64,000 nucleotides of DNA from a virus (IMGVR_UViG_3300046820_000975:32001-96000), one strand, 5' to 3'; positions 25,187-57,700 are shown, numbered from the stretch's first letter. Program-made: numbers and translations. The notes: generated from the sequence alone by a model not told the origin.

Positions 25187-25782
25187 TGGAACAGTCAAGC
25201 AATGGCAATATGCTAAAACGTACATTAGCGACTCCTGTTAAAAGCACTGCACCAACAGTTGCTCCTGGAGTTAAAGCACCATCAATAAAAGGTAAAAACA
25301 TTTTATTATCTGATGAGTGCGTATCTTATCTTAACTATCGCATTGAACAAGAAGAGTATTCTTCAAGAATATATCTTGCAATGTCTATGTGGTTAAACAA
25401 CAATGGTTACACTAATGCTGCTGCATTGTGGAAAAAATATTCAAATGAAGAATTAGCACATGCTGATTGGGCGCGTGAATATTTGTTAGCAATGGGTGTA
25501 CAACCAATGACTCCAAGATTGGATGCTCCAATTCAAGAGTTTTCTGGTTTACCACAAATCATCCATGATTCTTACGATCATGAGATTGTTGTAACTAAAC
25601 AAGTTAAAGATCTAGCTACTGATGCTTTTAAGAAAGGTGATCACATGTTATATGAGTTAACCTTGAAATACTTGAAAGAACAAGTAGAAGAGCATGACAA
25701 AATGCAGAACTGGGTTGATCAATTAAATGCTTTTGGTACTGACAAAGTAGCATTACGTTTACTTGACAATGAAATGGGATAA
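25186..25782 (+). CDS. ftnA: Non-haem ferritin-like protein with an N-terminal extension
   Basis: Ferroxidase pattern QEEYSSRIY, NEELAHA, DHE and EQVEE; four-helix-bundle length. Confidence 0.85.
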   Translation: MEQSSNGNMLKRTLATPVKSTAPTVAPGVKAPSIKGKNILLSDECVSYLNYRIEQEEYSSRIYLAMSMWLNNNGYTNAAALWKKYSNEELAHADWAREYLLAMGVQPMTPRLDAPIQEFSGLPQIIHDSYDHEIVVTKQVKDLATDAFKKGDHMLYELTLKYLKEQVEEHDKMQNWVDQLNAFGTDKVALRLLDNEMG

Positions 25783-31296: not shown

Positions 31297-32610
31297 ATGA
31301 CCATTATATCAGCTGTTTACAACAGTCTTAAACGCAAAAAATCTGCAGAATCTGAAGCTAGCAGATTAGGAATCTCCCTCCCTCAGTACCTTAAAGTTAA
31401 AGATGCATTGTTAAAAGTTATCCACAAGGTGGGTTCTAAAGTAGACAATGTTATAATTACTTTGGCTGAGCAAGAACTTAGCAAATCTTATTCTGTAAAA
31501 ACAGAAAAAGAATTATTAAAAGCTCTCACAGAGAAATTACCTGAAACTGAATCTGCAAAGTACTTTGAAGTACATGAAGATCTTGAATCTGGTACAAGTA
31601 AAATTTCAGCAATTTCTTCTACTGAACCTAAAAGTGCAGAAGAGATTATTAAACTTCTTAAGATTGATACTTCTAAATGGAAGTTAAGTCAATACTGGAA
31701 TAAAGAGAAATCTGATAAGTGGTTGGTATCTGCATTGGTAACTAAACGTCCAGAAGCAGAACAGATCCAAAGTACATTTTTGGATTTATTACAAAATTAT
31801 GAATTAGCACAACCTGCTGCACCAGAATTTTACTATTTAAACTCAGGGGTATCAGAAGAAGTTTGTGCAGTAATCTCATTGCAAGATCTTCACTTTGGTA
31901 AAACTGGTAATGAAGATTTAGAAATCCACGTAGAAAACGCTATAAAGTACCTTATTGGTAAAGCACATGTTAATTATACACTACAAAAAGTAGTTTTAGT
32001 TATTGGTGCTGACACCTTAAACATGGATACTTTTAACGGTACAACTACAAAAGGAACTCCAGTTGAGAATTCAAGTACAGCTACTAATGCTTATTTACAA
32101 GCGTTTGATTCAATATCAAATGCTTTGTCTCACATATATAACTATACAGAAGAACTTGAAGTTGTATTTGTACCAGGTAACCATGATCGTTTGAGTTCTT
32201 TCCATTTACTTCACGCTTTAAAACAAATGTTCCAAAATTGGGAACGTATGAAGTTTAGCATAGATTACGCTGAGCGTAAAGTACTTATGTATGGTAAAAA
32301 TATGATTTGCTTTGAACATGGTGATGTTTCTGCAAAGAACAACCCTTTAGTATTTGCAGTAGAATTCCCACAAGAATGGGGATCTTCTGTACACAGGATG
32401 CTTTATACTGGCCATTACCATGGACGCAAAACAAAAGAGTATATTACTGAAAATGAGGAGAATGGATTTGTAAGTAGGATTATCCCTGCATTAACTAGCT
32501 CTGACTATTACCATTATCACAACAAATGGGTGGGTAATAAACGTGCAGCAATTTTGCACATTCATGACGCTAATAATGGATTGATAGGAGAATTTACTTA
32601 TAGCGTGTAA
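31297..32610 (+). CDS. Calcineurin-like metallophosphoesterase
   Basis: DLHFG, GAD, PGNHD, HGD and TGHYH motifs. Confidence 0.88.
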   Translation: MTIISAVYNSLKRKKSAESEASRLGISLPQYLKVKDALLKVIHKVGSKVDNVIITLAEQELSKSYSVKTEKELLKALTEKLPETESAKYFEVHEDLESGTSKISAISSTEPKSAEEIIKLLKIDTSKWKLSQYWNKEKSDKWLVSALVTKRPEAEQIQSTFLDLLQNYELAQPAAPEFYYLNSGVSEEVCAVISLQDLHFGKTGNEDLEIHVENAIKYLIGKAHVNYTLQKVVLVIGADTLNMDTFNGTTTKGTPVENSSTATNAYLQAFDSISNALSHIYNYTEELEVVFVPGNHDRLSSFHLLHALKQMFQNWERMKFSIDYAERKVLMYGKNMICFEHGDVSAKNNPLVFAVEFPQEWGSSVHRMLYTGHYHGRKTKEYITENEENGFVSRIIPALTSSDYYHYHNKWVGNKRAAILHIHDANNGLIGEFTYSV

Positions 32611-35044: not shown

Positions 35045-35391
35045 TAACCAAAGGAAAAATCAAAATTTCAGTTTATGAAACTGAAGTGCAACTCATGGTT
35101 GTAGATTCAATGAGTGAATTGCAAGATTTGCTTATGAAAAAAGGTATTATGGTTCATGATGTAACTAATTGTGAAGGAATTACTTTAGGGTATAACAAAA
35201 CGTATTTAGTTGTATTGGTTAAAGAACTTATTAGCCATAATCTAATTGCTCATGAATTGTTTCATTTAGCAACTATGGTTACAAAAGATATTGATATTGA
35301 GGATGAAGAATCTCAAGCGTGGTTGAATGGATACATAACAGAGCATGTGTACAAAATTTTGAACAAGAAAAATATAACAATCAAGTTATAA
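35041..35391 (+). CDS. Small zincin-like (HExxH) protein
   Basis: IAHELFH followed by DEESQAW. Confidence 0.6.
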   Translation: MITKGKIKISVYETEVQLMVVDSMSELQDLLMKKGIMVHDVTNCEGITLGYNKTYLVVLVKELISHNLIAHELFHLATMVTKDIDIEDEESQAWLNGYITEHVYKILNKKNITIKL

Positions 35392-38300
35392 TGAGTGACG
35401 AATTACAAAACGCTGGCACCAATAAGACCAATACCTTTACAGAAGGTATGGTCAAAGATACTGCTGATATTTATTTATCAGACAAAGTATGGACACATGC
35501 TGTCAATGCTATCAACAATACGCATGTTGGTGAGACAGGTACATTAAGTAATGAATCAGCTAACTTTAAAACTGAAGAAGCTCCTTATACAATTATTGGT
35601 GCTGTTCATAAAACAGATACAGAATGGATATTGTTTTCAACAAATGATATGGATTCTGAGATTGGTATTTATGATGAGCGTACAAGCACTTATACTCAAG
35701 TTGTAAATGATAGGTGTTTGGGATTCAAACGTTCAAATATTATTACTGGTGTTTGTAAAGAAAACTACGATTGTACACGTTCTGTATATTGGCAAGATGG
35801 ATTAAATCCTGATAGAGTTTTAAATTTAAGTAGAGTACCTTATAAAATAATTGGAGATAGTGATCCATCTGAATGTGTGACTCCTATTTATTCTGATGAA
35901 CTTGATTGTGATGCTTTACGTTTACATCCATTAGTTGATCAACCATGTGTTACTATAAGAAAAGGAACTGGTGCTGGACAATTAAATAATGGTAGTTATA
36001 TAGCTGTTGTTGCATATTCTGAGAATGGTGTAAGATTAACAGATTATTCTGCACCAAGTCAACCACAAGCTTTGTGGGAACATGTTGGTATTGGAGGATC
36101 TTTGGATGTTAAAATAACAAACTTAGATACAAATTTTCATGAATTTGAATTAGTAATTGTTGCTGTAATTAATCAACAAACAATTGCTAAACGTATTGGT
36201 TATTACAGTATTGACCAATCAGAAATACATTTAGATATTTTTGGTCAAGACTTACCAACTGTTGATTTAGCTCAAATTCCACTTAAGCATATTGTATATG
36301 AAAAGAGTGATAAGATATTTGAGTTAGGTGGGTACATGATTCGTACAGGTGTAACAACACAACCACAATTCAATTATCAACCTTTAGCAAATAATATACG
36401 CGTTAATTGGCATAGTGTAGAATATCCAAAAGATTACTACTGGCATGGTGGAAATATCACTGGTTACATGCGTGATGAAGTTTATTCATTCTTTATACGC
36501 TGGGTGTATAATACTGGTGCAAGAAGTGCATCATACCATATTCCTGGAAGACCTAAAAACGCAAATGATTCTATTGCAGTAGGATCAACACCAGATAAAA
36601 TTTCAGCAAATGAAACAGAACGTTGGCAAGTATACGATACCTCAACAGCTGGACTGGCTACAAATACCATTACCAAAGATGGTGGTCTTATTGTAGATGG
36701 AGGTCAAATGGGGTATTGGGAGAGTACAGAAAGATATCCAAATGATAAACCAGAAATCTGGGGTTCATTGTGTGGAGAACCAATACGTCATCACAAAATG
36801 CCATCAAATGAAACAACTCACATTCATAAAGGTAATAACATTTATATCCTTGGTGTTGAGTTTGTTAACATACAGCATCCATTAGATGAGAATGCAAATC
36901 CAATAAAAGATATTGTTGGGTATGAAATTTTGCGTGGTTCACGTGAAGGAAATAGAACTATTGTAGCCAAAGGTGTTTTCAATAACATTGTTCAGTATGA
37001 CATGAATGGTAATCCACCAGCTGGTATGAAAGGATGTCATCAAAACTATCCATACAATGATTTGAGACCAGATAAATTCTTGACTCAAAACTATGCTTCT
37101 TTAGATGAAGGTACATCTGACTATGGTAGAATTAATGGAGAATCTGATATTGATATATTTAAAGATTATCTTTTTAGTTTTCATTCTCCTGAAACAAACT
37201 TTGTACGTCCATACTTAGGTGGTAATCATGTTAAAATTTATAGAGAAGAACGTGGTTATTCAGTTGGTGCATTTGAAGTACCATACAAACATCCAAAGAA
37301 CAAGTTTATAACTAACGCTGTATTTGGTATGTCTGCATTAGTGTCTGTAGGTATTGCAGCATTAAATGCGGTTGGTAGTTCTACTACATCTGGTGGCCAA
37401 TATATAGCTGCAGCACCTTATGGAGCTGGTACTGTACTTACTTCAGAAGGTTCTCGTCAGTCTGGTATTGCATCTTCTATTCCTGATTTAGTAAACGCCA
37501 GTTTTTTACAATCGCTAGGTATTTCATCTGCGGGTGGTACATTTGCTACAGCTGCTGCAGTAGCTACTGTTGTATTATCTTCTACCTATTATTTAGGTCA
37601 AGCAATGGATCTTGTATTAGATATCTTTTACAAGATGATTCCACATCGTGATTATATGTTACAGTATAATTCACACGCACATTACGATTCATCTGCAGCA
37701 CTTTCAAATTCTGCAGTTCCAAGCGGTATTAAACCTATGTATCGTAGAAACATACCATCTGGTTTAGCTAAGTATATTGGTTCTGGTGTTCAAGATTTTA
37801 GTCCAACTTACAGAGTTAACAATGTTAATCGTAACAAATTTGTTATGGTTCAAACTGCAAGCTCAATTCCAACACCAGCATTTTCAGATACCACAAGACA
37901 ACGTCTAAGTGATGTTAGAGCAACTAACAAACCATTTGAAAATTTTAGTCAACCTACATCTACTTATTATGGTGCAATAAAAGTTGATTTTCAAAATCAA
38001 TATGGTCAGTTAACAAGCATTGTACAATTACCAACTGACAGTTGTGTATTGGCTACTACACCAAATGGATTAATGCGTTTTAGATCAGGTGTTATATTTG
38101 GTGGAGATGTATACATAAATCGCTATACAGAAAAGAATCCTTATTACTTCTTCAATAGTTGGTTGCAAGGTGAACCAAATGGTACAGAGTTTAATTATCG
38201 TAACTATGTTAATGGTCCAGCACCAAGATACTGGATAGATACTAATAAGTATGATATTACTGACTTAAACATAACATTACAGAACTGGCATTTAAACTTT

Positions 38301-40043
38301 GTCACTCCTTCTGACTTCCATAGATTAGATAACAAAGATGCATTTAGAGGTGTATTTAGTGTGCGTAACTCTTATGCTTATTTGTTTTATAATGGTGTAC
38401 GTGACTTCTATACAGAAAGTGAATTAAACTTAGCGTATAGAGATTATGGTGAACCTGATACAGAAAAGTTTTATGATGTTTATGGAGGATCATTTGCTGA
38501 TCTTTCTACAATGTTTAGATCTGACAAAATTACATCTGCAATACAATATAAATATGATTTATCACTTTCATCCAGCAAGTTATTCTCTAACTTTGCATCT
38601 TGGGGATCAATCTTACCACGTGACTACGACCCTGAAATCTACAGCACATGTTTTGAGTATTACCCTAAACGAGCAATCTACTCTTTACAACATCAGTCAG
38701 GGTTAAAGCGTGATAACTGGAGAAACTATTTACCACTCAACTACAAAGATTTCAGTGGTAAAATTTCCACAATCAAAGCCTTAAATGCTCAAGGTGCTAT
38801 TATATTATTTGAAGATGCAGAACCAGTACAATTTGCTGGTGTTGACCAACTTCAAACTAAATCTGGTACTAAGTTTACAATTGGTGATGGTGGATTGTTC
38901 CAGCAAAATATGCAAAGTATTGTAAATGCTGATGATTCGTTAGAGTATGGCTCATGTACCTCATCAAGATCTGCAGTAAATACACCATTTGGTTTATTCT
39001 ACATATCTCAAAAACTAGGTAAGATCATGCACTACACTGGTGGTGGATTGGATGAAATTTCACGTAATGGTCTTAAGTACTGGTTTACAAACCACTTACC
39101 AAGTAAGTTGTTACAAGCTGCAGGTGATTATAAATTGTATGACAATCCAGTATTTGGTATTGGTTGTCAAGCAATGTATGACCAACAATTTGAATTAGTA
39201 TACTTTACTAAGAAGGATTACATACCATTACGCGATGATTTGTATTACAACGATCCTACAGGTATTCCTTATTACATGGTGGAAGGAATTAAAAACTATG
39301 TTCAATTCTCTAATAAAGAATTCTTTAAACCTTGTAGTTGGACAGTAAGTTATGATCCAAAATCTAAAGCTTGGGTTAGTTTTCACTCATGGGTTCCTGA
39401 TTTATTTATACCAGCGTATAGTCATTTCTTTACAACAAAAGACAATGGTATTTGGAAACACAATAGTATGTGGAACAAATACTGTGAATATTATGGTGTA
39501 CAGTATCCTTGGGAAGTTGAATTACCAGTAATAACACCTGGTGCAATAACAACTCTCAGAAGTGTAGAATATTGGATGGATGCATATAAATACACAAATG
39601 CTGGCCAAGATTATAAACATATTTTAGATTATAATTTTGACACTGCAATTATTCATAATTCTGAGCAAATATCTGGAATTTTAAAGTTAAATTTGAAATC
39701 TAAAAATAACCCAGGTCAACAGATACAATATCCATTGGTAGGGTTATATGGGACTGATATCTTAGTAAGTAAAGAAGAGAATAAATATCGCTTCAATACA
39801 TTCTGGGATGTTACAAATAATAGAGGAGAGTTTAACTATAATGAGACACCAATGTGGATTACTAGCTGCAATGGTTACCAACGTACGATAAATCCTTCGT
39901 ATATTAATTATAACAAGTCACCTTTTGAACGTAAAAAGTTTAGACATTATGGTAATAGAATTGTATTACGCAAAAATGGTGTGATGGATGTTAAAATGAT
40001 ACTTAAATTACATACAACTAAACTTCTTCAAAGTCCACGATAA
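35391..40043 (+). CDS. Tail muzzle/stabilization protein
   Basis: ~1550 aa, beta-rich; YMRDEVYSF, PIRHHKMP, GYEILRG, FGGDVYINRY and WVSFHSW motifs; start at MSDELQ. Confidence 0.8.
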   Translation: MSDELQNAGTNKTNTFTEGMVKDTADIYLSDKVWTHAVNAINNTHVGETGTLSNESANFKTEEAPYTIIGAVHKTDTEWILFSTNDMDSEIGIYDERTSTYTQVVNDRCLGFKRSNIITGVCKENYDCTRSVYWQDGLNPDRVLNLSRVPYKIIGDSDPSECVTPIYSDELDCDALRLHPLVDQPCVTIRKGTGAGQLNNGSYIAVVAYSENGVRLTDYSAPSQPQALWEHVGIGGSLDVKITNLDTNFHEFELVIVAVINQQTIAKRIGYYSIDQSEIHLDIFGQDLPTVDLAQIPLKHIVYEKSDKIFELGGYMIRTGVTTQPQFNYQPLANNIRVNWHSVEYPKDYYWHGGNITGYMRDEVYSFFIRWVYNTGARSASYHIPGRPKNANDSIAVGSTPDKISANETERWQVYDTSTAGLATNTITKDGGLIVDGGQMGYWESTERYPNDKPEIWGSLCGEPIRHHKMPSNETTHIHKGNNIYILGVEFVNIQHPLDENANPIKDIVGYEILRGSREGNRTIVAKGVFNNIVQYDMNGNPPAGMKGCHQNYPYNDLRPDKFLTQNYASLDEGTSDYGRINGESDIDIFKDYLFSFHSPETNFVRPYLGGNHVKIYREERGYSVGAFEVPYKHPKNKFITNAVFGMSALVSVGIAALNAVGSSTTSGGQYIAAAPYGAGTVLTSEGSRQSGIASSIPDLVNASFLQSLGISSAGGTFATAAAVATVVLSSTYYLGQAMDLVLDIFYKMIPHRDYMLQYNSHAHYDSSAALSNSAVPSGIKPMYRRNIPSGLAKYIGSGVQDFSPTYRVNNVNRNKFVMVQTASSIPTPAFSDTTRQRLSDVRATNKPFENFSQPTSTYYGAIKVDFQNQYGQLTSIVQLPTDSCVLATTPNGLMRFRSGVIFGGDVYINRYTEKNPYYFFNSWLQGEPNGTEFNYRNYVNGPAPRYWIDTNKYDITDLNITLQNWHLNFVTPSDFHRLDNKDAFRGVFSVRNSYAYLFYNGVRDFYTESELNLAYRDYGEPDTEKFYDVYGGSFADLSTMFRSDKITSAIQYKYDLSLSSSKLFSNFASWGSILPRDYDPEIYSTCFEYYPKRAIYSLQHQSGLKRDNWRNYLPLNYKDFSGKISTIKALNAQGAIILFEDAEPVQFAGVDQLQTKSGTKFTIGDGGLFQQNMQSIVNADDSLEYGSCTSSRSAVNTPFGLFYISQKLGKIMHYTGGGLDEISRNGLKYWFTNHLPSKLLQAAGDYKLYDNPVFGIGCQAMYDQQFELVYFTKKDYIPLRDDLYYNDPTGIPYYMVEGIKNYVQFSNKEFFKPCSWTVSYDPKSKAWVSFHSWVPDLFIPAYSHFFTTKDNGIWKHNSMWNKYCEYYGVQYPWEVELPVITPGAITTLRSVEYWMDAYKYTNAGQDYKHILDYNFDTAIIHNSEQISGILKLNLKSKNNPGQQIQYPLVGLYGTDILVSKEENKYRFNTFWDVTNNRGEFNYNETPMWITSCNGYQRTINPSYINYNKSPFERKKFRHYGNRIVLRKNGVMDVKMILKLHTTKLLQSPR

Positions 40044-42349
40044 TGGCACAAAATAGAGATATACTACTGAATTTTATCTTGTCTCAACGTCAGAGAATTG
40101 AGCCAGATCCTGCAAGACAAATGTTCCAGGTGGCTGGTACATCTGTGCGTCCAACAACAGCTAACAACATGATGCAGAGTGCTGTTGCAAACGTAGCTAA
40201 ACAAAAACAAGCTCAAGCTCAAGCACAAGCTCAGGCTGCAGCTGCGCAAGCAGCACATGAAGCTGAATTGGAAAGATTGCGTACTCAGTATGGTCAACAA
40301 GCAGCATCACGTATGACATCTGCTCAAGTAGCTCAAGCTAACAGAATGAGTCAACAAGCTGCTGCTGCACCACAAGCAACTGTAGCGCAAACTCAAACTC
40401 CTACAACAGTACAACAAATTCAAAATTTTGCTACTCACCCATTGCAATCAATGACAGGTCGTGAGAATAATTTTGATATGTTGGCAGGTATTCCAGGTTA
40501 TATAGCAACGGTAGCAGCTCCAAATACTGCATACAATTTAACAGTTGGATTGCCTGATACTGCAGCAGATATTGCCAATGCAACAATTGGTGCTTCAGGA
40601 GAACTTTTAACTGGGCAACCTATTTCGCCAGAAACAAAACTTGCTGCATATAATACAGCTAATCGTTTATTAGATGCATCAGCAGTTTTACCTGTTGGTA
40701 AAGCTATTCAACCTGTAATGAAAGTATTTGGTCCTACAATGGAAGAAGTTGCAATGGCAGGAAAACATATATTACATTCAGGTGTAGGTCAAGTTGCAGA
40801 ACAAGCTGCACACAAAGCTGCACATAAGGCTGTTCACCATCAAGTTGAACATTTGGCTGACCATGGCGCAGATCAAAATGCCAATCAAACTCATCAATAT
40901 ACACAAAATATGAATAACTCATATGAAAATCCATCACATGCTTATGGTGGTTTAATGAAATTTTTAGTAGGTGGAAGTAAAATTCATATTGATCCATCAA
41001 AGAAGGGAACGTTTACTGCTCAAGCTACTCGTATGAATATGGGTATCCAAGAAGCTGCTAGACATATTATGGCTAACAAAGAAGATTATTCACCTGAAAT
41101 GGTTAAGAAAGCTGTGTTTGCACATAACTTTGCAAAACAAATGGGTGGGTCATTAGAACAATATGGTTATGCAGGTGAAGTTTCTCCTAATGCACCTATT
41201 GATTTTAGTAACTATGTACCAGCTGCAAATAATACATATATAGATAGAAGTGGTGCAGGTCAACCTATGCAGATTGTTAATGGTGCACTTCAATATGTTC
41301 CACAACCACAAATCAAACCTGCTGCTACTCCTACAGTTAATGGTAGACAAATTACAGGATATACATATGATGGTACACCATTGTATAAACATGACATGGG
41401 TGGATTAGCTAAGTTTATAGCAATGTATCCATTGCAAAAATTTGATATTGGTGGATATACTCCTGATGAACCAGGATTTGCTCCAAACATGTTTCCTGCA
41501 AGAACAACAAGATCAGTACATACAGATCCTGAAGTAGCTGCTCAAGCAGCTCGTCAACGTGTACAACAAACTACAGTACATGAACCAGCTAATGTTAATT
41601 GGTATGTTCCACAAGAAGGACAATATCCTCAAGCACAAATAAGTCAAGCTGGTTATCCTCAAGCTGTATATGCTCCTACTCAAAGATTTGCTCCTATAGG
41701 TAACATGCCTGCAGAAGCAATGTCTGATCAAGCTCAAATGATGAAATGGCTTGCTGCAAATCCAGGAGTATCTGGATTTACTGCTGCTTATCCTAATGGA
41801 GCACCTGCTCCAACACCTGGTAGTGTTACATATCCTATTACTGGAGGTGAAGATAAAGTAACGCCTTATAATGGAGGTGATTTACCTACAGTTGTTAAAT
41901 CTGCGGTGCGTCCTTCAAAAGCTGATCCATTTGGTAATGGTTTAACAAAAGATGATGTTAAGAAAGTTCAACGTGAACTTATTGCTTCTGGTATTTTGGA
42001 ACCATCGGGTAAGAAATTTGCTAATGGAGAAGATCGCGAAGTTGACGGCATGTGGGGTCCTAAAACTCAAGCAGCGTATGAAAAGTATATTGCTAAAAAG
42101 AATTTAGAAAGTATGGAACTTATGCCTGAAAGATGGAATACTCCTTCCATGGAACAATATGTACCAGGGCAAATTCCAACACAAGCTCCAGCTGAACCAT
42201 CACCAATGCCTCAACGTTATGCAGGTATGGATATTCAACCACGTCGTACTGGTAGTGCTTTAAAAACTGAAAAGCGTGGCAAAGATGAAAAAGCTTATGG
42301 TGGATACAGTGGATATGGATTTGCTAAATGGTTAGATCAATTTAAATAA
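40043..42349 (+). CDS. Putative virion cargo protein with GG-delimited modules and a peptidoglycan-binding (PG_binding_1-like) domain
   Basis: DVKKVQREL...VDGMWGPKTQAA; repeated YGG/MGG motifs; Q/A/P-rich linkers. Confidence 0.6.
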   Translation: MAQNRDILLNFILSQRQRIEPDPARQMFQVAGTSVRPTTANNMMQSAVANVAKQKQAQAQAQAQAAAAQAAHEAELERLRTQYGQQAASRMTSAQVAQANRMSQQAAAAPQATVAQTQTPTTVQQIQNFATHPLQSMTGRENNFDMLAGIPGYIATVAAPNTAYNLTVGLPDTAADIANATIGASGELLTGQPISPETKLAAYNTANRLLDASAVLPVGKAIQPVMKVFGPTMEEVAMAGKHILHSGVGQVAEQAAHKAAHKAVHHQVEHLADHGADQNANQTHQYTQNMNNSYENPSHAYGGLMKFLVGGSKIHIDPSKKGTFTAQATRMNMGIQEAARHIMANKEDYSPEMVKKAVFAHNFAKQMGGSLEQYGYAGEVSPNAPIDFSNYVPAANNTYIDRSGAGQPMQIVNGALQYVPQPQIKPAATPTVNGRQITGYTYDGTPLYKHDMGGLAKFIAMYPLQKFDIGGYTPDEPGFAPNMFPARTTRSVHTDPEVAAQAARQRVQQTTVHEPANVNWYVPQEGQYPQAQISQAGYPQAVYAPTQRFAPIGNMPAEAMSDQAQMMKWLAANPGVSGFTAAYPNGAPAPTPGSVTYPITGGEDKVTPYNGGDLPTVVKSAVRPSKADPFGNGLTKDDVKKVQRELIASGILEPSGKKFANGEDREVDGMWGPKTQAAYEKYIAKKNLESMELMPERWNTPSMEQYVPGQIPTQAPAEPSPMPQRYAGMDIQPRRTGSALKTEKRGKDEKAYGGYSGYGFAKWLDQFK

Positions 42350-42355
42350 ACCAAT

Positions 42356-45214
42356 ATGATAGACAGTTTTTTAAGAATTGCGGGTGTAAAAAGTGAAGCT
42401 GAATTTTACAAAAAATACCCAACACAGGAATCTTTTTTTGAAGATCATCCTGAAGCTATTGAATTGTCTAAACATGAAATAGGAGGACAGTTTAGAATTA
42501 GAGATACTGAAACAAACCCTATGATGTTAAAGGCTGCTGAAGGATTTCAAATGCCTGGTTATACACCACAAGAAGGTGATAACATTTATACACAAACATC
42601 ACAACATACTCTTGCTGATTTAAAAAACAGTGATTGGAACAAAGGTCTTGCTACTATTAACAGCTTGGGTAACTATAACAATATGTTAGGTCAGTTACCT
42701 GACAAAGGTTTATTTGGTAAAATTAAAGCTGGCGCTGGTATTGCTGCTGGTGCTTCAGGTGCCATATTAGGATATGAAAAAATGTTCAATCCTAATAAAA
42801 CAACTACAAACACTTTAGTTAATACAAATACTGGTGAATTTGGTTCAGCTGAAGATGTTATTAAACAACGTGCTAAAACTGCTAAAGAAAAAGAAGTTAG
42901 TACTGCGTTAGGTGTACACCCTCCAATGGTTGCACAGAATAATGAATTTTCATTTCCTAATTTTGCACCTGGTACTCCTGAGTTTAATAACTTTGCAACA
43001 AATGGTTTTCAAGGTTTAGGAGCAAAAACATCTCCTACTAAACCTACAGTTGCTAGTGGTCCAACTAATACTGCTCCTGTTCAACCAACAACATCTACTG
43101 CACCAGGTTCAACCATGAAAGCTACTGGTTCTGGTATGCAATCAATGTATAATCAAAATGAAATTGATCAACAGTTAGGTTTAACAACTAATCAGTATGG
43201 TGGATTAACCAAGTTTTTACCTGATGAAGCATACACAGATGAATACCCAATGATGGCAAAAGGTGGGTATACTGTAACAAGAAGTCATGATCGTAAAGGT
43301 AAAACTCACAAAGTAACAGGACCTGATGGAACTGTTAAGTACTTTGGTGATTCTAAGTTAGGACAACATCCTAATGATCCTGCAAGAAAGAAAGCTTTTT
43401 ATGCTAGACATAAACATAACTTAGAAAAAAATCCTTATTTCAGAGCATTTGCTAGAGCTACTTGGGAAGAAGGTGGTGAAGTTAATGAAATGAAACATGG
43501 TGGTGAAATGATACGTAGAGCAGATGGTAGTTATTCACAAAGAGGATTATGGGATAATATTAGAGCCAATGCAGGTTCTGGTAAAAAGCCTAGCAAAGAG
43601 ATGTTAGAACAAGAAGCAAAGATAAAAGCTGCTTATGGTGGATTAATGAGATTTGAAGAAGGAGGCGCAGGTAATACAAATCAACCTGTTACACAAACAA
43701 AACAAATATCAGGAACTACACAGGCTATACCTGGTCAACAAGCATCTTATAATGCAACTATTACTCCAGGTAATCAAAATACAGGAAATACTGTAAATGC
43801 TTTAAATACTTCTGCTACTGTTGGTAATAATAATTATTCAGTAACAGGTAATGCTAATGTTGCAAATGATAGATTAGCAGATTATGGTGTAAATGCAAAT
43901 GTAAACAAAGGTAATTTTAGTGGAGGTGCTAGTTATAACACTACAACTCAACCAGGAAGTCCAGATAAATATACTGCAAATGCTGCTTATAATTCTCCAT
44001 CAGGTTTAAACATAAATGGTTCTCTCAATGGAACAACTGCTACTGGTGTCAATGATGTAAATCTTGGAGCTTCTTACAATAAAAATAATGTACAAGCACA
44101 AGCACAATATACTAGAAATTTAAATACACCTGGTGCTTATAATTATACAGGTTCTGTTGGATATGGTACACCTAAGATGAATATAACTGGTAATGTTAGT
44201 GGTAATAATAATGCACCAGTAAGTTCATATGGTGTAACAGCTGGATATTCACCAGCTCCTGGTGTAACAGCTACTGCAAATTATACACATAATGTAGGAT
44301 CAAGTCCAGAACAACCAGCTAACTCTGCCAATGTTGGAATGCGTTATAATGTTCCAAGTTCTACACCAAGACAACAACCAAAAACATTTACAAATGCTGT
44401 ACCTGCTCCTGATCCATTTTTGTCTTCAACACAACAACAAAAATTTGGAGGATTGATGAAATTTGTAAATGGTGGTGAACCTACGTTTAAACAATGGTTT
44501 GCAGAAAATGCAGGCAGACCTGATGTAATGAGTAATGTTGGTAATTACCAAGCATTGCAACGTATGTTTTTAGATGAGAACCCTATGGCTCAAACAGCTC
44601 AGGGTGCATATGGTCCAACAAACAATGGGATGTTCAGTAATGAACCTGCGCAATCAGCATTATCTGCACCAATGCAATCACAATATACTGGTAGAAATGC
44701 AGGTACACGTTCTGGTATGGCGTCTGTATATAATACTAATCAACAAACAGATTGGACAGATCCTGCAATAGCTGGTGCTAATACAGCAAATGTAGCACCA
44801 ACAGCTAACCAATTAAAATTCCAACAGTTTGCAAACAAGTCTATCAAACGTGGAGATGATTCAGGAACAATTGCTGCTAATAATGCATTGCAAGGTTTAG
44901 GTATGGCTAGCTCAGCTTTAGGTACCATGGATAAAGAAGCAGAGTACAATAAAAGATTGCGTGAAATTGGTAATACAAATTTCTCTACACAACCTTCAAA
45001 TCCAACAAATCCATTTGGTAATTATACACTAAATGCTGGTCCTGCATCTAACTTTGGTTTAGTAGCAAACACTCCAATACAAGATATTGGTACTAGTGGA
45101 ATTGCTGCAAAATATGGTGGATCTAAAATGTATAGAGAAGGTGGTACATATTTATTGTCACCTGAAGAAGTTCGTAACATTTTAGCTAATGGTGGTGAAG
45201 TAGAGTTCATATAA
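42356..45214 (+). CDS. Putative virion cargo protein, multi-modular, including a beta-barrel-like segment
   Basis: About ten xxGG motifs separate small basic modules and an N/G/Y-rich amphipathic beta-strand region. Confidence 0.6.
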   Translation: MIDSFLRIAGVKSEAEFYKKYPTQESFFEDHPEAIELSKHEIGGQFRIRDTETNPMMLKAAEGFQMPGYTPQEGDNIYTQTSQHTLADLKNSDWNKGLATINSLGNYNNMLGQLPDKGLFGKIKAGAGIAAGASGAILGYEKMFNPNKTTTNTLVNTNTGEFGSAEDVIKQRAKTAKEKEVSTALGVHPPMVAQNNEFSFPNFAPGTPEFNNFATNGFQGLGAKTSPTKPTVASGPTNTAPVQPTTSTAPGSTMKATGSGMQSMYNQNEIDQQLGLTTNQYGGLTKFLPDEAYTDEYPMMAKGGYTVTRSHDRKGKTHKVTGPDGTVKYFGDSKLGQHPNDPARKKAFYARHKHNLEKNPYFRAFARATWEEGGEVNEMKHGGEMIRRADGSYSQRGLWDNIRANAGSGKKPSKEMLEQEAKIKAAYGGLMRFEEGGAGNTNQPVTQTKQISGTTQAIPGQQASYNATITPGNQNTGNTVNALNTSATVGNNNYSVTGNANVANDRLADYGVNANVNKGNFSGGASYNTTTQPGSPDKYTANAAYNSPSGLNINGSLNGTTATGVNDVNLGASYNKNNVQAQAQYTRNLNTPGAYNYTGSVGYGTPKMNITGNVSGNNNAPVSSYGVTAGYSPAPGVTATANYTHNVGSSPEQPANSANVGMRYNVPSSTPRQQPKTFTNAVPAPDPFLSSTQQQKFGGLMKFVNGGEPTFKQWFAENAGRPDVMSNVGNYQALQRMFLDENPMAQTAQGAYGPTNNGMFSNEPAQSALSAPMQSQYTGRNAGTRSGMASVYNTNQQTDWTDPAIAGANTANVAPTANQLKFQQFANKSIKRGDDSGTIAANNALQGLGMASSALGTMDKEAEYNKRLREIGNTNFSTQPSNPTNPFGNYTLNAGPASNFGLVANTPIQDIGTSGIAAKYGGSKMYREGGTYLLSPEEVRNILANGGEVEFI

Positions 45215-45306
45215 GAAACTGCACTTAATTTAGGAAAAGTCTAACTAATTTTGTACTTTTAAATGTAAGAGGTTTAGTGTGAGTTTCCTTTAAACTTCAA
45301 AAGTTT

Positions 45307-48300
45307 ATGCAAAGAATACGTATTAAAAAAGCTCCAAATAAAGGAGACCAACGCGACTACAGTCTTTATGACAGAACTAGTTTAAATCCAGGTGCACCAG
45401 ATAATACTGAGCACATAGGAACTACTATGGGTCCAGTAGATCGCGAAGATGCCAATGTAGAAGTTGAAAGAGGTGAAGTTGTTATTGGTGATACAAACCA
45501 AGATGGTTTTTTAGAACTATTTACGTTCACTGGTAAACCTCACAGTAAAGGAGGTACTCCAGTTAATATACCACCAGGTTCATTTATTTATTCTAATACA
45601 CGTAAACTGCGTATTAAAGATGCAGAATTATTGAAAAGTCAGTTTGGACTTTCAATGAAGAAAGGTGGATGGACTCCTGCTGAAATTGCAAATAAATTTC
45701 AAATTAATGAGTATGTATCTGATTTAAAAAATCCAGATACAGATAACCTTACAAAGCGTTCTTCAGACAGAATGCTTAAAAACAATTTGCAGAAGTTAGG
45801 TATTCTTGCGTTGATTCAAGAATCAATGAAAGGATTCCCTGATGGTATTCCTGCAATTGCTGAACCTGTTATGCAAGAGATGGGCGTAGATCCATCTATT
45901 ATTACTGGACAACAACCACAAGAACAAGCTCCGCAATTACAAGAAGCTCCTGAACAAGAAGTACAAGAGCAACCACAAGAAGCACCAGCTGAAGAATCTG
46001 GAGAAGGCATGCCATCTTTAGAAGAGTTTCAAGCTATGCAAGAACAAGGTATGCAAAAGTATGGTGGATTAACACAATATGCTGGTGGTGGGATGACAGT
46101 TCAGCAAGCGCAAGCTTTAAGTAAGAATTTGATTGCTAAATATCAAGATGCTTATAAAAGAAAAGATTATGCTGCATTAGCAACATTAGCACCACAGTTA
46201 AGACAAGCATCAAATCAGATTAATCAATTTAATGATGCTGGTTGGTATTCATTAGGTATGATACCTGGAACAGATCAATCAGCATTTAATAGTTATACAA
46301 GTCAGTTAAGTCAAGCAGCAAATGATATTGAAAGAAATATTATACCACAAAGTAATTTTGTTAGTACTATTGGTAATCAGCTTAAAACATTAACTGATCA
46401 ATATCAAGCTGATTATAATAAGTTGAATTCAGGACAATTGACAAATTTGTCAACTGAAGATATGCAAAAGATAAAACAAATCTATGAGTTAAATAATAGA
46501 TTTGCAGCTCATGCAGCTAATATTAAAGCTGGTGGTGCTGGTATGCCTGTATCTGAATTAGCTAGATTACAAAATCAGTTAGCAAAATATTCAGCTCCAT
46601 CATCTACTGGTGATAATGGAATGTCTAGTACATTAGATAGCGCTGAAGTATTAAATGCAGAATCATCTGCACCAGCTTCTACAAATACATATACATCATC
46701 TCCATTTAAAAAAGGTGATGTTTATAAATCTAAATGGGGTAGTTATGAGATTGTAAATCCAGCAGCTGATGCTGATGGAATGATTCAGCTTGTTAACAAA
46801 CAAAATAATGCAAAGACTAAAGTTAAGTTAAGTACAATGCAACAAGCAATTGGTACTGGTTTAACTAAAGGTGGAGCTGATCTTATTAGTACTGCTCCTG
46901 CTGAAACTCCTGCACAACCACCAGCACAACCAAGAGTTGGTTCTACAACTACTCCAAGTCAAGGAACACAAACAACACCAGCAGCTTCATCTGGAAGATC
47001 ATCACAAGGTCCTTCAAGTGCTACTACTGGACCAATGTTCTCAGATGATATTTACAAGATGCGTTATGGTGGATATTTAAAACGATTTGATGGAGCTGGT
47101 ACAAACAATGTTCCATTAAACACTAATGCTACTACACCTGCAACTGATGAAGAAAAGTTTGTTAGTGATGTTTCAGTTAATGGTCAAACGTATAAGAAAT
47201 ATAGCAAAGGTGATTTAGTAATTATTAAAGATGCTAATGGTAGAACATTATCATCTAAGAATATTAAAACTGGTGAAAAGACAGACTACAGACCAGATGC
47301 AACAATTACATATAATGCTAAGAATGAGCGTATTAACATTGATGCACCAGATCCATCTGTAGATTATAAAGCTAAAGATTGGAAAGGTAAATATTCAGCA
47401 AGCGCAGATGAGTTTGAAAAACTTATAAATGATCCAGGAAATGAAGATTTGCGTAACTCTATTTATGAAGAGTTTAAAAAAATTGCACAAGATCATGCTG
47501 CAAGAACAGGAGATAAAAGCTTATTAAACATTGATAAAGCTAATGCTATTCAAATGCTTATTAAAGGTAACAGAGATAATGCTACCATTAATAGTGTTTA
47601 TGAAAAAAATCCTGAGTTATTAAAAAGTGGAGATTGGGATAAAACTCAACCTAATGATTACGTAGATGCAGCAGGTAATAAAGTAAGTGGTAAAAACCTT
47701 ATTTATAATAGAGTTGCTAGCAAACTTGGTATTACACCAATGGATGCTCTTGGAACTAAAGTTTTCCAAGGAATTTATCAAGCTTCTCAGAATGTTGCAC
47801 GTCAACCACAATACGTTGAGAAATTTACTAAAAGTGGATTTGACATTACACCAATTGGTCTTAGTGATCAAACACGTTTAAATCAACCAATTTCTCCTGT
47901 AGATGAAATCTATGGTAACACTACTGTAGGTCAAATGTACAAGTTAAAACAAGATCCAGAAATACCAATTACTGTTCCTCCAGGAAAGAAAGTAAAATAC
48001 TATTGCGTTAAACAAGCAAATGGTATGGGTAATGTGGTATCTGTCACTTATAATGAAGGTGAACAACCTATTGCACCTGCAGGCGCAGGAGCAGGATTTG
48101 ATGACAGATCTACTGCTGCTATGAATTGTTCACAAGAACAACCTGGATTAGAGCAAGCACCAGTTAAATCTGGCCCATGGTGGTTACCTGATATTGTTAA
48201 CTATACTGGTACATTAACAGATAAGATTAACAGATACGAACCTACGTTAGAGCAATTAAGCTCACGTACTCCAGGATATGTTTTATTAGATCCAACACGT

Positions 48301-49011
48301 CAATTGGCTGCTAACCAAAGTCAAATGCAACAATACAACGACATGCTTTCAAATACGATGGCAGGTAATGTTGCAGCAGCTACTGCGTTAGGTGCTTCTG
48401 GTGAAGGATTTAATAATGCTGCTAATGTATTAGCATCTGTTGAGGGACAAAACGTTGGTATTGTTAATAATGTTGCGGCAAGTAATGCGCAGATTCAAAA
48501 TCAACAAGATATGTTGAATGCGCAAGCACGTCAGAATTATGTTGGTCAAATGGCAACATTAAATCAAAATCTTGACAATGCTGAGCAACAACGTAAGTGG
48601 AGACAAATAGCTGCATTTAACAATGGTACTAATAACTGGTATCGTAAAAAACAAATGGAGCAAGTATTATTCCCTCAAGTATTTATCAATCCAATCTCTG
48701 GTGATGCAGAATTTTCTGGCAAAGGTAGAGATTATGCAGGATATGATGTATATTCGCCCGCGTATGCATCTAACACAAAAGCTAATACTTTTGATGTTCA
48801 AGGTACATATAACAAATATATCAAGGCTGGTAATACAGATGCACAAGCTAAATGGTTAACAGAAAAAGAACTTGAGTTAAATAAAACTTCAAGTTCTGGT
48901 TCAGATGCTAGTTCAAGACAAGCATATATGAATGCTATTATGAACCAATCAGCTGGTCAAGCAATTGAGCGTTGGGGCGGTGCAATTACACCTTGGGATT
49001 TTGACGTTTAA
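45307..49011 (+). CDS. Putative virion cargo/ejection protein
   Basis: N-terminal NVEVERGE...HSKGG..V motif seen in crAss-like cargo proteins; Q/N-rich helical C-terminus. Confidence 0.6.
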   Translation: MQRIRIKKAPNKGDQRDYSLYDRTSLNPGAPDNTEHIGTTMGPVDREDANVEVERGEVVIGDTNQDGFLELFTFTGKPHSKGGTPVNIPPGSFIYSNTRKLRIKDAELLKSQFGLSMKKGGWTPAEIANKFQINEYVSDLKNPDTDNLTKRSSDRMLKNNLQKLGILALIQESMKGFPDGIPAIAEPVMQEMGVDPSIITGQQPQEQAPQLQEAPEQEVQEQPQEAPAEESGEGMPSLEEFQAMQEQGMQKYGGLTQYAGGGMTVQQAQALSKNLIAKYQDAYKRKDYAALATLAPQLRQASNQINQFNDAGWYSLGMIPGTDQSAFNSYTSQLSQAANDIERNIIPQSNFVSTIGNQLKTLTDQYQADYNKLNSGQLTNLSTEDMQKIKQIYELNNRFAAHAANIKAGGAGMPVSELARLQNQLAKYSAPSSTGDNGMSSTLDSAEVLNAESSAPASTNTYTSSPFKKGDVYKSKWGSYEIVNPAADADGMIQLVNKQNNAKTKVKLSTMQQAIGTGLTKGGADLISTAPAETPAQPPAQPRVGSTTTPSQGTQTTPAASSGRSSQGPSSATTGPMFSDDIYKMRYGGYLKRFDGAGTNNVPLNTNATTPATDEEKFVSDVSVNGQTYKKYSKGDLVIIKDANGRTLSSKNIKTGEKTDYRPDATITYNAKNERINIDAPDPSVDYKAKDWKGKYSASADEFEKLINDPGNEDLRNSIYEEFKKIAQDHAARTGDKSLLNIDKANAIQMLIKGNRDNATINSVYEKNPELLKSGDWDKTQPNDYVDAAGNKVSGKNLIYNRVASKLGITPMDALGTKVFQGIYQASQNVARQPQYVEKFTKSGFDITPIGLSDQTRLNQPISPVDEIYGNTTVGQMYKLKQDPEIPITVPPGKKVKYYCVKQANGMGNVVSVTYNEGEQPIAPAGAGAGFDDRSTAAMNCSQEQPGLEQAPVKSGPWWLPDIVNYTGTLTDKINRYEPTLEQLSSRTPGYVLLDPTRQLAANQSQMQQYNDMLSNTMAGNVAAATALGASGEGFNNAANVLASVEGQNVGIVNNVAASNAQIQNQQDMLNAQARQNYVGQMATLNQNLDNAEQQRKWRQIAAFNNGTNNWYRKKQMEQVLFPQVFINPISGDAEFSGKGRDYAGYDVYSPAYASNTKANTFDVQGTYNKYIKAGNTDAQAKWLTEKELELNKTSSSGSDASSRQAYMNAIMNQSAGQAIERWGGAITPWDFDV

Positions 49012-54700: not shown

Positions 54701-57700
54701 GTTACTGATATTAGTCGCCTTAACAATGATGCAAAAGAATACATGCAAAGCGTGGATGTGTTATACAATCCAGAAGCTTTTGAGTATGCTACATCAAGAA
54801 TGTTAGATGGTGAAATCAAATTCAAAATTAATGCTACTTTAAAACAGTTGTCAGAAAGTACAGATAATTCAATTGCTATGATCATTCTTGGGTATCAGAT
54901 AACTGATCCAAATGAACAAAGAGCAATTGCACAAGAAGTATTTGATGCTGTACAAAAGTCTAATGAGTATACTAAACTAATAGCACTTATAGTTGACCCT
55001 AATTTAGGGTATCAATCTGGTACTTACGCAAATGAATTATTTCAATCTTTATTCAAAAAGCTTACAGATAAAGTAAGAGAGATTTCAAATCGCTATGATA
55101 AGTCTGGCGCAACTGATATCTCAGATACTGATTATGAAGCGTTTAAGAAAGATGGTACAGTACCTGAAGATGTAAAGCAGCGTATAGCTCAAATGCTTTA
55201 TGATCGTAATCCTCTTACAGATAAGATGAAAGAGGTTTATGATAAACATAAAGAAGACATTGACAAAATGGTTGATGCTTTAGAAGAAGAGTTTAAGAGA
55301 AAGCGTGATGCAGCTCGTGGTCAAAAGATCTATGATAATTCTGCTAACTCGTATGAAGGTCAAGCATCAAAGCGATTATACGTCATGGAGAATGATCGTA
55401 GATTTGCAGAAGACATTGAGAAATATTATGAAACACGCGATGGTCAAGTAGGTAGCCTTAAAGAGATGGTTCAAAAGGCAATTGAAAATCCTTTAACACA
55501 TCCTTATATTAAAGAAGGATTAAAGAAATTAGTTGATAAGATAGGTGATGATGCGCTAGTTAAATTTGATTCAAAACAAACTATTGCTCCAGGATACTAT
55601 GATCCTAAAGAGCATCTTGTTGTATTAGATCCAGAATTAGTAAACTCTGGTAATGTAAGTTTTGAAGCTGTTATGTTCCATGAATTAATACATTACTTTA
55701 CTTCAAGAGAACTTAATAAAGATACTGAGTTTACTCAGAAAATTGAGAAAATGTATGCTAATGCCAAAGTGTTTATGATGGCAAACAACATTAGTACCAA
55801 TTACTATGGCATGTCTAACTTGGATGAATTCCTTGCTGAAGCATTTACAAATCCAGAATTCCAAAGTCAGTTAAATAAAATTCCAGGTGATCAAGGTAAA
55901 ACCATGTGGCAATCATTCTTGGATGCATTAACTAAGTTTTTAAAAGAAGCTTTGAATGTTAATGTTACTCCATCAATGCTTACAGATGTAATGAAAGCTG
56001 TACAGGAGTTTATTGATGATCCAACTTACAATGGTGCAGTAGAGTTCTTAAAAAACAAAGGACTAACTGATGCTGAGATACAAGAATTTTCACGTGCTGA
56101 AGTATTGTCTATTGCTGAACAAGAAGGATATAATAAAGATCAGAATCCTCCAGCTTCAGAAGATTCATTAAATAAACCTGAAGAAATTATTCCTGAATTA
56201 CAACAAGCTGCAGAAGGTCTTACAGGACAAGAAACTGGTGCTGTTGCAGAAATAATCCCTCCTACAGATTCTGAAAACATGACTGCTGAAGAAATTGAAA
56301 GACAAGCAACTTCTTTAGCTGAAAATGATGTAAAGGAAAATACAGAAGCTTTAGAAAGATTAACTGGTAAAGGTCAAGTTGGTAGTACTGTTACAGATGT
56401 AGCTTCAAATGAAATGTCTGGTGCTCCTGACATGAGTCAATTATTAGCTGGTAAATTAGGTGCAGGCGCAACTGTTAATGTACCTATCAAAAATGGTTTA
56501 GTACAAATTACTATTAATGATAACAATGTATATAAGGAAGCTTATGTATTCAATGTTAAAGACGGTGTAATTGTTAAAGCTACACATGTCACTAGATTTA
56601 AAAACTCTACAGAACCTACAGCAGATAAAAAGACACAGGTTGCTAATCCTATTGAAACTTATAATAATCTTGCGTCTAATCCAGCTTACAAAGTTGATGT
56701 GCGTGATGATGATAAAGTCAAAGAAACACCTGCACAACAAACAACTACTCCAGATATTCAAGCTAAAAAAGCTGAGATTGAAAAAAGAAGAGAACAAGAA
56801 ATCAAAGAGAACGTTCAATTACTTGATGTAAATGATGTAAGAAGACCTAATGGTGCAATTGGTACACAAGGGTTTGATCCATCAACAATGAAAGATTTAG
56901 TAAAATTTATATCAGGTAAGATGGGATTTGCAATACCATCTGAATTACTTGATAAAAAGACTGATAAATTAAAACCTCTAATTGATTATATAATTGAAAA
57001 TCAAGACATTAAAGCTAAAATACTTGATTATATTACAAGCAATCCATCAGAAATATCTGTCATGCCTGATGATTCTATTCAATTTTTGGATGGTAACCAT
57101 AGAGCAAATTTATTAAACATCATTGGTTCTGCAGTTATTCCTGTTATAAATCAGACTTCAAAAAAACAAATTGATTCTAAATATGATGCAGAACTAGCTG
57201 CTTTAAATACTGAAAGTACTGGTGAAGCTGCTATAGCTTTAGATGAGAAAGTAAGTACAGCTCCTGTTGTAACTGGTAACATTGAAGTTAAAGGTACAGA
57301 AGAAACTGGGTTACAAGTAGTTGATACTCAAACAAATACAACAGTTGCAAAAGATATTGAAAATTTAGATGAAGCTAACAAAATAGCACAATCATTTAAC
57401 AACAGTGTATCTGATGTAGAAGTAGCAAAACAAATTCTAGATAAGTTGATGAATGGCAGTGCAACTCCTGAAGCTATTGTAGCATTCTGTGAATCAGCTA
57501 AAAACAGTTTGCGTTCATATAATAATATGAATAAGACAGATCTTAAAACTTTAAGTGAGTATGCTAATACTCCTAAAGGTATGGAGTTGTTGACCAATCT
57601 AGCTAAAAAGAAATTGGGAATACAAGAAACAAAGAAGAAAACTGCAAAGGTTGAAAAGAAAGAAACTGCTGCACAACCTGATTTGTTTAACACTACTAAC

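Follow-up and report, generated by a model that had tools for sequence, protein, structure and literature searches.

We analyzed a 64,000-nucleotide stretch of viral DNA (IMGVR_UViG_3300046820_000975:32001-96000), referred to here as the window. It covers bases 32001 to 96000 of a 111,924-bp IMG/VR virus record (genome 89% complete), and its source is a freshwater crAss-like phage. Three consecutive open reading frames (ORFs), B, C, and D, are punctuated by a short glycine-rich peptide that we call the seam. As judged from sequence, the products of B, C, and D are most likely carried in the particle and injected. The gene order is ORF A, then B, C, and D, then ORF E, and then the giant ORFs F and G (Table 1). 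In crAss001, the order is gp44 (muzzle), gp45 and gp46 (cargo), and then the virion RNA polymerase proteins gp47 to gp50. The window has the same order, and B, C, and D occupy the cargo position, after the muzzle gene and before the virion RNA polymerase genes. We found this order in 80 related viral loci, whose cargo slot holds 2 to 4 Gly-Gly-rich ORFs of 373 to 2162 amino acids (aa).

The initial annotation described a repeated YGG-type motif in the three cargo ORFs. We found all the copies that it listed at their stated positions, including those that start at 40940 (AYGGLMKFLVGG), 43631 (AYGGLMRFEEGG), 44441 (KFGGLMKFVNGG), 46057 (KYGGLTQYAGGG), and 47062 (RYGGYLKRFDG). We searched with a narrow regular expression, [YFMW]GG.{2,3}[KRQ][FYW], and with a paired form, GG-x3-4-[YFWM]-x2-3-[GA]G. 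The narrow motif matched eight times in B, C, and D together, whereas 5000 residue shuffles averaged 0.064 matches and never had more than 2. The paired form also matched eight times, compared with 0.19 expected from shuffles. Among the six-frame ORFs of the window, the narrow motif is found in B, C, and D only; F and G lack it. Over the full genome (106 ORFs; 35,947 aa), a single narrow match lay outside B, C, and D (103 ORFs, 33,000 residues). By the shuffles and the six-frame and genome scans, the motif is nonrandom and confined to the cargo ORFs. We rejected the other GG-rich ORFs of the genome as seam proteins; they are beta-rich and fibre-like or acidic, and their GG sites have no seam context. 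The likeness to enkephalin (YGGF) and to the LC3-interacting region motif (Y-x-x-L) was set aside as coincidence.

We found at least 907 homologues of ORF C, with mosaic coverage; the parts shared are chiefly residues 300 to 430. Among the best 120 homologues, 81 carry 123 paired seams, each directly before a recognizable module start, such as GGEMIRRADGSY, GGYTVKRS, GGYVGMDGKFHM, GGYYDCP, or GGEYYVSDEEV. In 1438 distinct GG sites from 121 cargo ORFs, we found enrichment at position -3 from the first Gly (Met, 18%; Tyr, 18%; Phe, 8%) and at position -1 (Tyr, 13%). The spacing from one GG to the next peaks at 6 to 9 residues (138 to 158 observed and about 20 expected, roughly sevenfold). The consensus of the spacing-8 class is Y-GG-x-x-x-[Y 38%/M 34%/F 8%]-x-x-GG, with an aromatic residue or Met 3 residues before the second GG. 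This positional enrichment and spacing define the seam unit as a module end, Phi-x-x-G-G (where Phi is a hydrophobic residue), which is often doubled. YGGLMKFVNGG of the window is a canonical doubled seam. The code recurs in no fewer than 907 homologues and in the 80 related viral loci. The seam pattern is real, and our literature search found no published description of it.

Seam-like Phi-x-x-GG sites are also present in the cargo-slot proteins of the cultured relatives Cellulophaga phi17:2 (895-aa protein; 14 GG, 9 of them with Phi), Flavobacterium FPSV-S29, csAssE-Sib, and Leptolyngbya Lbo-JY46. A cysteine variant, GG-x-P-C-Y-E-C-GG followed by YYDCP, was seen in homologues P0036 to P0117 (e.g., YGGQPCYECGGMYAEGGYYDCP) and in locus L036 (10001-10405). 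It keeps the spacing and the central Tyr and may be a zinc knuckle.

The seams also relate to the ends of the genes. A seam-type tail (Phi-GG-x3-12-Phi) closes B and D and also 53 of the 638 distinct related ORFs, and no natural C terminus in the family ends in GG. The N-terminal module MKIRITK occurs 32 times at the start of an ORF and 7 times internally in fused genes, where a seam stands before the former start codon. The module that ends ORF C, L[ST]xxE[IL]...G[GY]x[VF]E[FI][ILM], has 88 copies in related ORFs, all at the extreme C terminus and none internal. Going by these 88 copies, translation stops seem to be the only source of free ends. The cyanophage Leptolyngbya Lbo-JY46 has the same module, DLSPEEVAKLIELGYDFEVV, directly before the stop. 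The module was also noted at L004 21047-23071. The ORF that follows it often starts with MK[IV]RI[TK]K. Head-to-tail strand pairing between consecutive cargo proteins at the C-terminal module is conceivable.

We found that modules are gained, lost, and swapped at the seams. When the 120 homologues were all compared with one another by BLAST, the starts of high-scoring segment pairs (HSPs) coincided with a GG in 19% of cases and lay no more than 3 residues from one in 56%. For HSP ends, the shares were 19% at the second Gly and 51% at a distance of up to 3 residues; random positions give 11%. BLAST breakpoints lie no more than 4 residues from a GG in 70% of cases for ORF C and 55% for ORF B, and such positions make up 10 to 11% of residues. 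In alignment A1, two small domains of ORF C, K and R, are bounded by GG and are found together, alone, and in either order, from residue 53 to residue 995 of the proteins that carry them. Beyond the bounding GG, the sequences are unrelated between loci. The breakpoints and alignment A1, the kind of check that the initial annotation had suggested, together confirm that homologues exchange modules at GG motifs. The broader claim that GG motifs mark module boundaries held for most breakpoints; it failed at D82 and D120, which lie within a conserved domain, and at C523, which lies within the beta-rich stretch. We do not count these three as seams. The K domain is 87 to 89% identical in amino acid sequence in distant loci, and its third-codon-position identity at conserved residues is 0.44 to 0.75. 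Because synonymous sites are near saturation in several loci, the sharing of the module appears to be old, with selection acting on the protein. Judging from these values, the K domain, whose function is unassigned, is under very strong purifying selection.

We built AlphaFold2 (AF2) models of the K/R region with alignment A1. The K domain was modeled as three strands and three helices with a predicted local distance difference test score (pLDDT) of 76 to 94, and the R domain was modeled as two helices. The seams are predicted to be disordered, with a pLDDT below or about 50 in C270-299, C373-387, and C428-450, and the predicted helices stop 1 to 2 residues before the Gly pair. A Foldseek search of the PDB with the K/R model found nothing below an E value of 0.9. 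Against BFVD, the K domain gave weak matches to small stand-alone viral proteins of the DUF5754 type.

Individual modules and seams showed the same behavior. The mini-module B312-369 matched P0119 aa 1193 to 1276 in phmmer (positions 164 to 247 of the 1030-1280 piece searched; E, 1.9e-20). It also follows a GG in loci L017 to L020, L043, and L056, and 30 HSP ends lie at GG368. At the K/R joint (C373-383), relatives have insertions or other modules, and the R domain also begins ORFs, as MSKKDLIKRADGSY. The counterpart of the seam at C697-707 elsewhere is YGGAMKRYxxGGE, ahead of the same ...TF/YxEW module. The beta-rich stretch C438-696 matched no family in domain scans, and few homologues cover it. 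In three D orthologues, the counterparts of D252-262 (AYGGMTKMQTGG and KFGGLMKAQAGG) form a conserved island amid flanks that cannot be aligned. The peptidoglycan-binding domain that had been proposed for these ORFs has Pfam matches, which are subthreshold only (E, 0.05).

Table 1. Features of the cargo region; positions are counted from the first base of the window
Feature	Position	Strand	Evidence or remark
ORF A, muzzle-protein homologue, start of the cargo gene block	35319..40043	+	tblastn, PHROG
ORF B, 768 aa, seam-punctuated cargo protein	40043..42349	+	Sequence, homology breakpoints
Paired seam YGGLMKFLVGG (B301-311)	40943..40975	+	67 HSP starts; coverage rises from 4 to 85
Mini-module SKIHIDPSKKGTF...NFAKQMGG (B312-369), seam ended, recurs in other contexts in relatives	40976..41149	+	
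Putative variant seam MGGLAKFIAMYPLQKFDIGG (B452-471)	41396..41455	+	Sequence; no homologue covers this stretch
C-terminal seam-type tail YGGYSGYGFAKWLDQFK of ORF B, before the stop	42296..42346	+	Tail type in 53/638 related ORFs
ORF C, 952 aa, seam-punctuated cargo protein	42356..45214	+	Mosaic coverage by homologues
N-terminal module MIDSFLRIAGVKSEAEFYKKYP...HEIGG (C1-44)	42356..42487	+	Starts ORFs in L007, L008, L053, L049, L062
Extended seam YGGLTKFLPDEAYTDEYPMMAKGG (C281-304)	43196..43267	+	54 HSP starts; pLDDT <50; variants PGGEYDF..VDEYPMMKGG
K domain GGYTVTRSHDRKGKTH...ATWEEGG (C303-374), small, basic, DUF5754-like fold	43262..43477	+	A1, AF2
Paired seam GGEVNEMKHGG (C373-383), K/R joint	43472..43504	+	113 HSP starts, 72 ends; pLDDT <50
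R domain EMIRRADGSYSQRGLWDNIRANAGSGKKPSKEMLEQEAKIKAA (C384-426)	43505..43633	+	A1; two helices
Paired seam YGGLMRFEEGG (C427-437)	43634..43666	+	135 HSP ends; coverage falls from 170 to 15; pLDDT about 50
T/N/G-rich, beta-rich stretch (C438-696), ~260 aa, between two paired seams	43667..44443	+	Sequence
Paired seam FGGLMKFVNGG (C697-707)	44444..44476	+	Kept in P0002 as YGGLMKFVGGG
Paired seam YGGSKMYREGG (C920-930)	45113..45145	+	KYGGTAQYAEGG in P0004-P0007
Strictly C-terminal module TYLLSPEEVRNILANGGEVEFI of ORF C, before the stop	45146..45211	+	88 terminal, 0 internal
ORF D, 1234 aa, C1 (gp45)-type cargo protein	45307..49011	+	CARG1-like domain
CARG1-like (portal-binding) domain (D32-175)	45400..45831	+	hhalign
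Paired seam YGGLTQYAGGG (D252-262)	46060..46092	+	Conserved island in three orthologues
Variant seam YGGYLKRFDGAG (D587-598)	47065..47100	+	Orthologues have GG...KYKYDA here
C-terminal seam-type tail WGGAITPWDFDV of ORF D, before the stop	48973..49008	+	Orthologues end in GGYTPYE, GGNPFGK, or FGGVVYFPWSDIE before the stop
HELIH of ORF F (aa 1319), sole HExxH site with any zincin-like signal; candidate protease	55679..55693	+	Pfam, subthreshold

Bayfield et al. (2023, PMC10172136) resolved parts of the cargo protein C1 (gp45) in the crAss001 virion, and we compared the window with it. D32-175 aligned with CARG1, the portal-binding domain of gp45, with an hhalign probability of 96.8% and an E value of 2.4e-10. 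A Pfam hmmscan of B, C, and D gave no match to CARG1 (PF25725), so that the domain was found by hhalign, in D only. As a CARG1 homologue, D32-175 makes D the counterpart of C1. In D, the CARG1-like domain is N-terminal, has a 28-aa insertion (GDTNQDGFLELFTFTGKPHSKGGTPVNIPP), and has lost its seam, with DN-TEH standing where GG-THE would be. The CARG1 domain of crAss001 C1 and of the environmental C1 proteins is internal and follows a seam. K/R-type modules and the Pfam domain crAss_CARG1 stand together in one homologue, P0119, which matches crAss001 gp45. All the environmental CARG1 copies are preceded by the seam Y-A-x-GG-x-L-x-x-F-N-E-GG-THEQN. Both of its Gly pairs are invariant at 29 to 52% identity, including in gut-type sequences with an insertion between them. 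In the AF2 monomer of CARG1, the seam stretch is unstructured (residues 1 to 35 below 50). The rest of the model matched 7QOG chain M with a Z score of 9.5 and a root mean square deviation of 3.3 over 101 residues; the next match scored 5.6.

The gp45 sequence has aromatic-GG seams at 209, 263, 332, 427, 434, 447, and 562. In the crAss001 virion, gp45 residues 214 to 245 are resolved on the tail barrel, and residues 425 to 552 form one compact domain that interdigitates with the portal wing loops (PMC10172136). By sequence, the domain at 425 to 552 opens with AFGGWLNTQGG...INEGG and spans three GG seams homologous to the environmental seam. The segment at 214 to 245 starts just after SAYGG (209-210), and FAYGG (562-563) follows the end of the 425-552 domain. 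The resolved segments of gp45 are thus bracketed by seams and start at or just after them. The ordered state of the gp45 seam region is as reported, taken from the text of the paper and the gp45 sequence. A search of Shkoporov 2018 for a gel-band assignment of gp45 found bands of 15 to over 300 kDa. C1 is proposed to leave the particle first and to assist in crossing the cell envelope (PMC10172136). B, C, and D resemble C1 in that their genes come right after the muzzle gene, D32-175 is homologous to the portal-binding domain, and gp45 itself bears seams. They differ in number, there being three in the window, and in their modules, which are far more numerous, smaller, and of other kinds (K, R, IHIDPSK, and EFI-tail); we found no relative of these modules among 50,697 GenBank phages. 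The crAss001 structure paper makes no mention of a seam code (PMC10172136).

Upstream of the cargo block, we found terminase, portal (17438-20170), major capsid (21553-23199), and ring proteins. ORF A is a virion structural protein by its PHROG match, and tblastn matched it to the "Muzzle protein" of csAssE-Sib and to structural proteins of Cellulophaga phi17:2. Pfam, PHROGs, and NCBIfam had nothing above threshold for B, C, and D or for nine subsegments. BLAST searches with the region and with the K/R core, protein searches included, found no match among the 50,697 GenBank phages, so that these modules have no cultured close relative or proteome. A scan for related loci with the muzzle protein as the query found none. 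As a candidate for the N-terminal membrane-spanning helix of gp45-type proteins, C121-140 (GKIKAGAGIAAGASGAILGY) looks hydrophobic and Gly/Ala rich and, in appearance, resembles gp45 137-160. ORFs B and C lie in one frame at 42347 to 42358, with TAA ACC AAT between them and then the ATG of C. We rejected a B-C readthrough fusion; the frame is common to both, but the B stop TAA followed by ACC AAT ATG is an ordinary gene border. In related loci, the parts corresponding to B and C are fused or split in other ways. We also noted a ferritin-like domain protein (PF00210; E, 2.8e-22) at 25186 to 25782, within the tail/ring gene block and adjoining a homologue of ring protein 3/4, and a DNA-repair exonuclease homologue (phrog_704; E, 1e-53) at 31297 to 32610, amid the virion gene block.

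We favor the reading that the seams are flexible joints left uncut, which also serve as docking peptides and as sites of module exchange, and we give it about an even chance of being right. B, C, and D would then be C1-type cargo (ejection) proteins, laid out like beads on a string. The mini-modules range from 6 to about 250 residues and end in a seam, aromatic/Met-x-x-Gly-Gly, which at many joints is doubled as Y-GG-x3-[Y/F/M]-x2-GG. The Gly pair would end the last helix of the module and give a hinge, and the chain would be packed and threaded through the portal and tail module by module. The aromatic/basic stretch between or after the Gly pairs may fold on binding and dock on inner virion parts or on neighboring cargo. 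We propose the docking role because one homologous seam is ordered in the portal-bound domain of crAss001 C1. The seams would also be the points of module exchange, insertion, deletion, and gene split or fusion. The comparison of homologues shows the exchange itself, and we propose that seams serve it because they are structurally neutral and shared.

Several points weigh against this reading. The seam disorder predicted by AF2 is equally compatible with a cleavage site. The docking of the window's own seams and the portal contacts of gp45 425-448 are what we infer. A plain hinge leaves the conserved aromatic residue and the fixed spacing unexplained. The giant proteins F and G are packaged as well yet carry no copy of the motif. 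Finally, the twelve portal sites are too few for roughly ten seams per protein set, so that other binding partners must be assumed.

The initial annotation read the motif as a protease site or, alternatively, as a packaging tag. Under polyprotein processing, a protease of the phage (e.g., the zincin-like one of ORF F) or of the host would cut the chain behind Gly-Gly, either inside the capsid or once it is injected, and would set free many small basic domains and enzymes. Adenovirus and African swine fever virus (ASFV) are established cases of GG-X cleavage, and GG-specific cysteine proteases take a hydrophobic residue at P4. In keeping with cutting, every module is GG ended with the next beginning directly after it, the seams are exposed and disordered in the AF2 models, and the K domain resembles small stand-alone viral proteins. 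A gp45 cut between 245 and 425 would explain how one part could be in the tail and another in the capsid. The virion proteins cut by the adenovirus protease and ASFV pS273R (clan CE) and the double-glycine leaders of C39 peptidases likewise have Gly-Gly directly before the next unit. The phage differs from these systems in several respects. We found no match at an E value of ≤1 to the clan-CE proteases PF00770 and PF02902 (C5 and C48), none to the C39 peptidase PF03412, and none to the prohead proteases S77/S78 (PF03420 and PF04586) in the 89%-complete genome; other protease families were not searched. The hydrophobic residue at -1 or -3 from the first Gly corresponds to P3 or P5, which does not fit the adenain-type P4 consensus (Phi-x-G-G|x). 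Also against cutting are the absence of GG from natural C termini, the terminal position of the free-C-terminus module in 88 of 88 copies, and the gp45 stretch 425-552, which has three GG seams by sequence and is reported as one domain in mature crAss001 virions. On these grounds, the protease-site reading was not upheld, and we regard polyprotein processing as unlikely.

The candidate proteases had been given as three HExxH proteins. We found HExxH in four ORFs of the window, a 185-aa ORF, a 116-aa ORF, F, and G. As candidates, two match no family, and F has subthreshold matches to zincins only, Peptidase_M76 (E, 0.0015) and, at the polyvalent-protein metallopeptidase (MPTase) family, MPTase-PolyVal (E, 0.028); its HELIH site speaks for processing to this extent. 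The polyvalent-protein paper (Iyer et al. 2017, PMC5512222) proposes zincin processing of injected proteins. The same paper describes the N4 virion RNA polymerase as carrying an MPTase and yet being packaged unprocessed, which counts against cutting in the virion, as does the lack of seams in F and G. The crAss001 virion structure is silent on the state after injection, and cutting at that stage is therefore compatible with the virion data. We consider it quite improbable that the seams are a postinjection processing code in which Phi-x-x-GG is cut by a host protease or by the zincin-like domain of F. If this were true, a few genes would yield modules by the dozen after injection, small basic DUF5754-like ones among them. 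A DNA phage would then be using a polyprotein strategy, and phages would trade the modules like cassettes.

A pure packaging tag would be recognized by the portal, scaffold, or capsid at procapsid assembly, with the copies giving avidity and the hinge and exchange being by-products. In favor of a tag, a short capsid-targeting sequence is known from T4 internal proteins, one homologous seam region is at the edge of the crAss001 domain that binds the portal, and the motif also serves as a C-terminal tail. Since F and G also need packaging and lack the motif, it is not a universal packaging tag. In addition, the copies far exceed the portal sites, and seams follow module borders too regularly for a tag that is free to sit anywhere. 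A docking tag probably fits better than a protease site; the universal packaging version does not fit, and we hold the pure tag to be doubtful. The seams could also be evolutionary scars only, conserved linker remnants of past recombination with no virion function, comparable to the glycine-rich motifs that separate the variable segments of T-even gp38. The modules are shuffled exactly at seams, and copies share TAT GGT GGA TTA at the DNA level. We rejected this recurrence as a DNA-level recombination signal; it reflects the preferred codons of an AT-rich genome. The seam residues are invariant where the flanks have diverged beyond alignment, and the near saturation of synonymous sites in the K domain points to old sharing and protein-level selection. 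We find the scar explanation very unlikely.

Among known systems, polyvalent proteins combine multiple domains, enter the particle and are then injected along with the DNA, and are extremely mosaic in domain makeup; zincin-like MPTase domains have been proposed to act in their processing (Iyer et al. 2017, PMC5512222). A term search of that paper did not find the seam motif. As in polyvalent proteins, there are many unrelated domains per polypeptide here, and homologues carry YkuD, LysM, DUF3597, DUF5754, and CARG1. However, polyvalent proteins are defined by effector domains and not by a junction peptide, and the Pfam scan found neither an MPTase nor a recognized effector enzyme in B, C, and D. 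To our knowledge, no seam peptide or bead-like mini-module grammar is known for podovirus ejection proteins, and our literature search concurs. These proteins (T7 gp14-16, P22 gp7/16/20, and N4 gp51/52) are stored in the virion, pass the tail partly unfolded, and show mosaic conservation (PMC8954989, PMC13434306), and crass cargo proteins have been suggested to be analogous to N4 gp51 and gp52 (PMC13434306). The seams can also be compared with motifs in other proteins and other places. In the surface adhesins of T-even phages (gp38, with glycine-rich motifs) and in secreted polymorphic toxins (VENN and PxxxxDPxGL), a different short conserved peptide marks the exchange point of variable modules.

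The cargo (ejection) proteins of crAss-like phages are the least understood part of the virion in terms of how they are loaded, kept within capsid and tail, and threaded out. The seam peptide, present in the ORF C homologues, with Phi-GG sites also in crAss001 gp45 and in the cultured Cellulophaga, Flavobacterium, and Leptolyngbya phages, provides a concrete handle on them. It is open to mutation, to a search in existing virion mass spectra, and to inspection in the deposited 7QOG map. The seams also give annotators a rule for splitting otherwise unannotatable mosaic proteins into modules, and they reveal where these phages exchange their payload modules.

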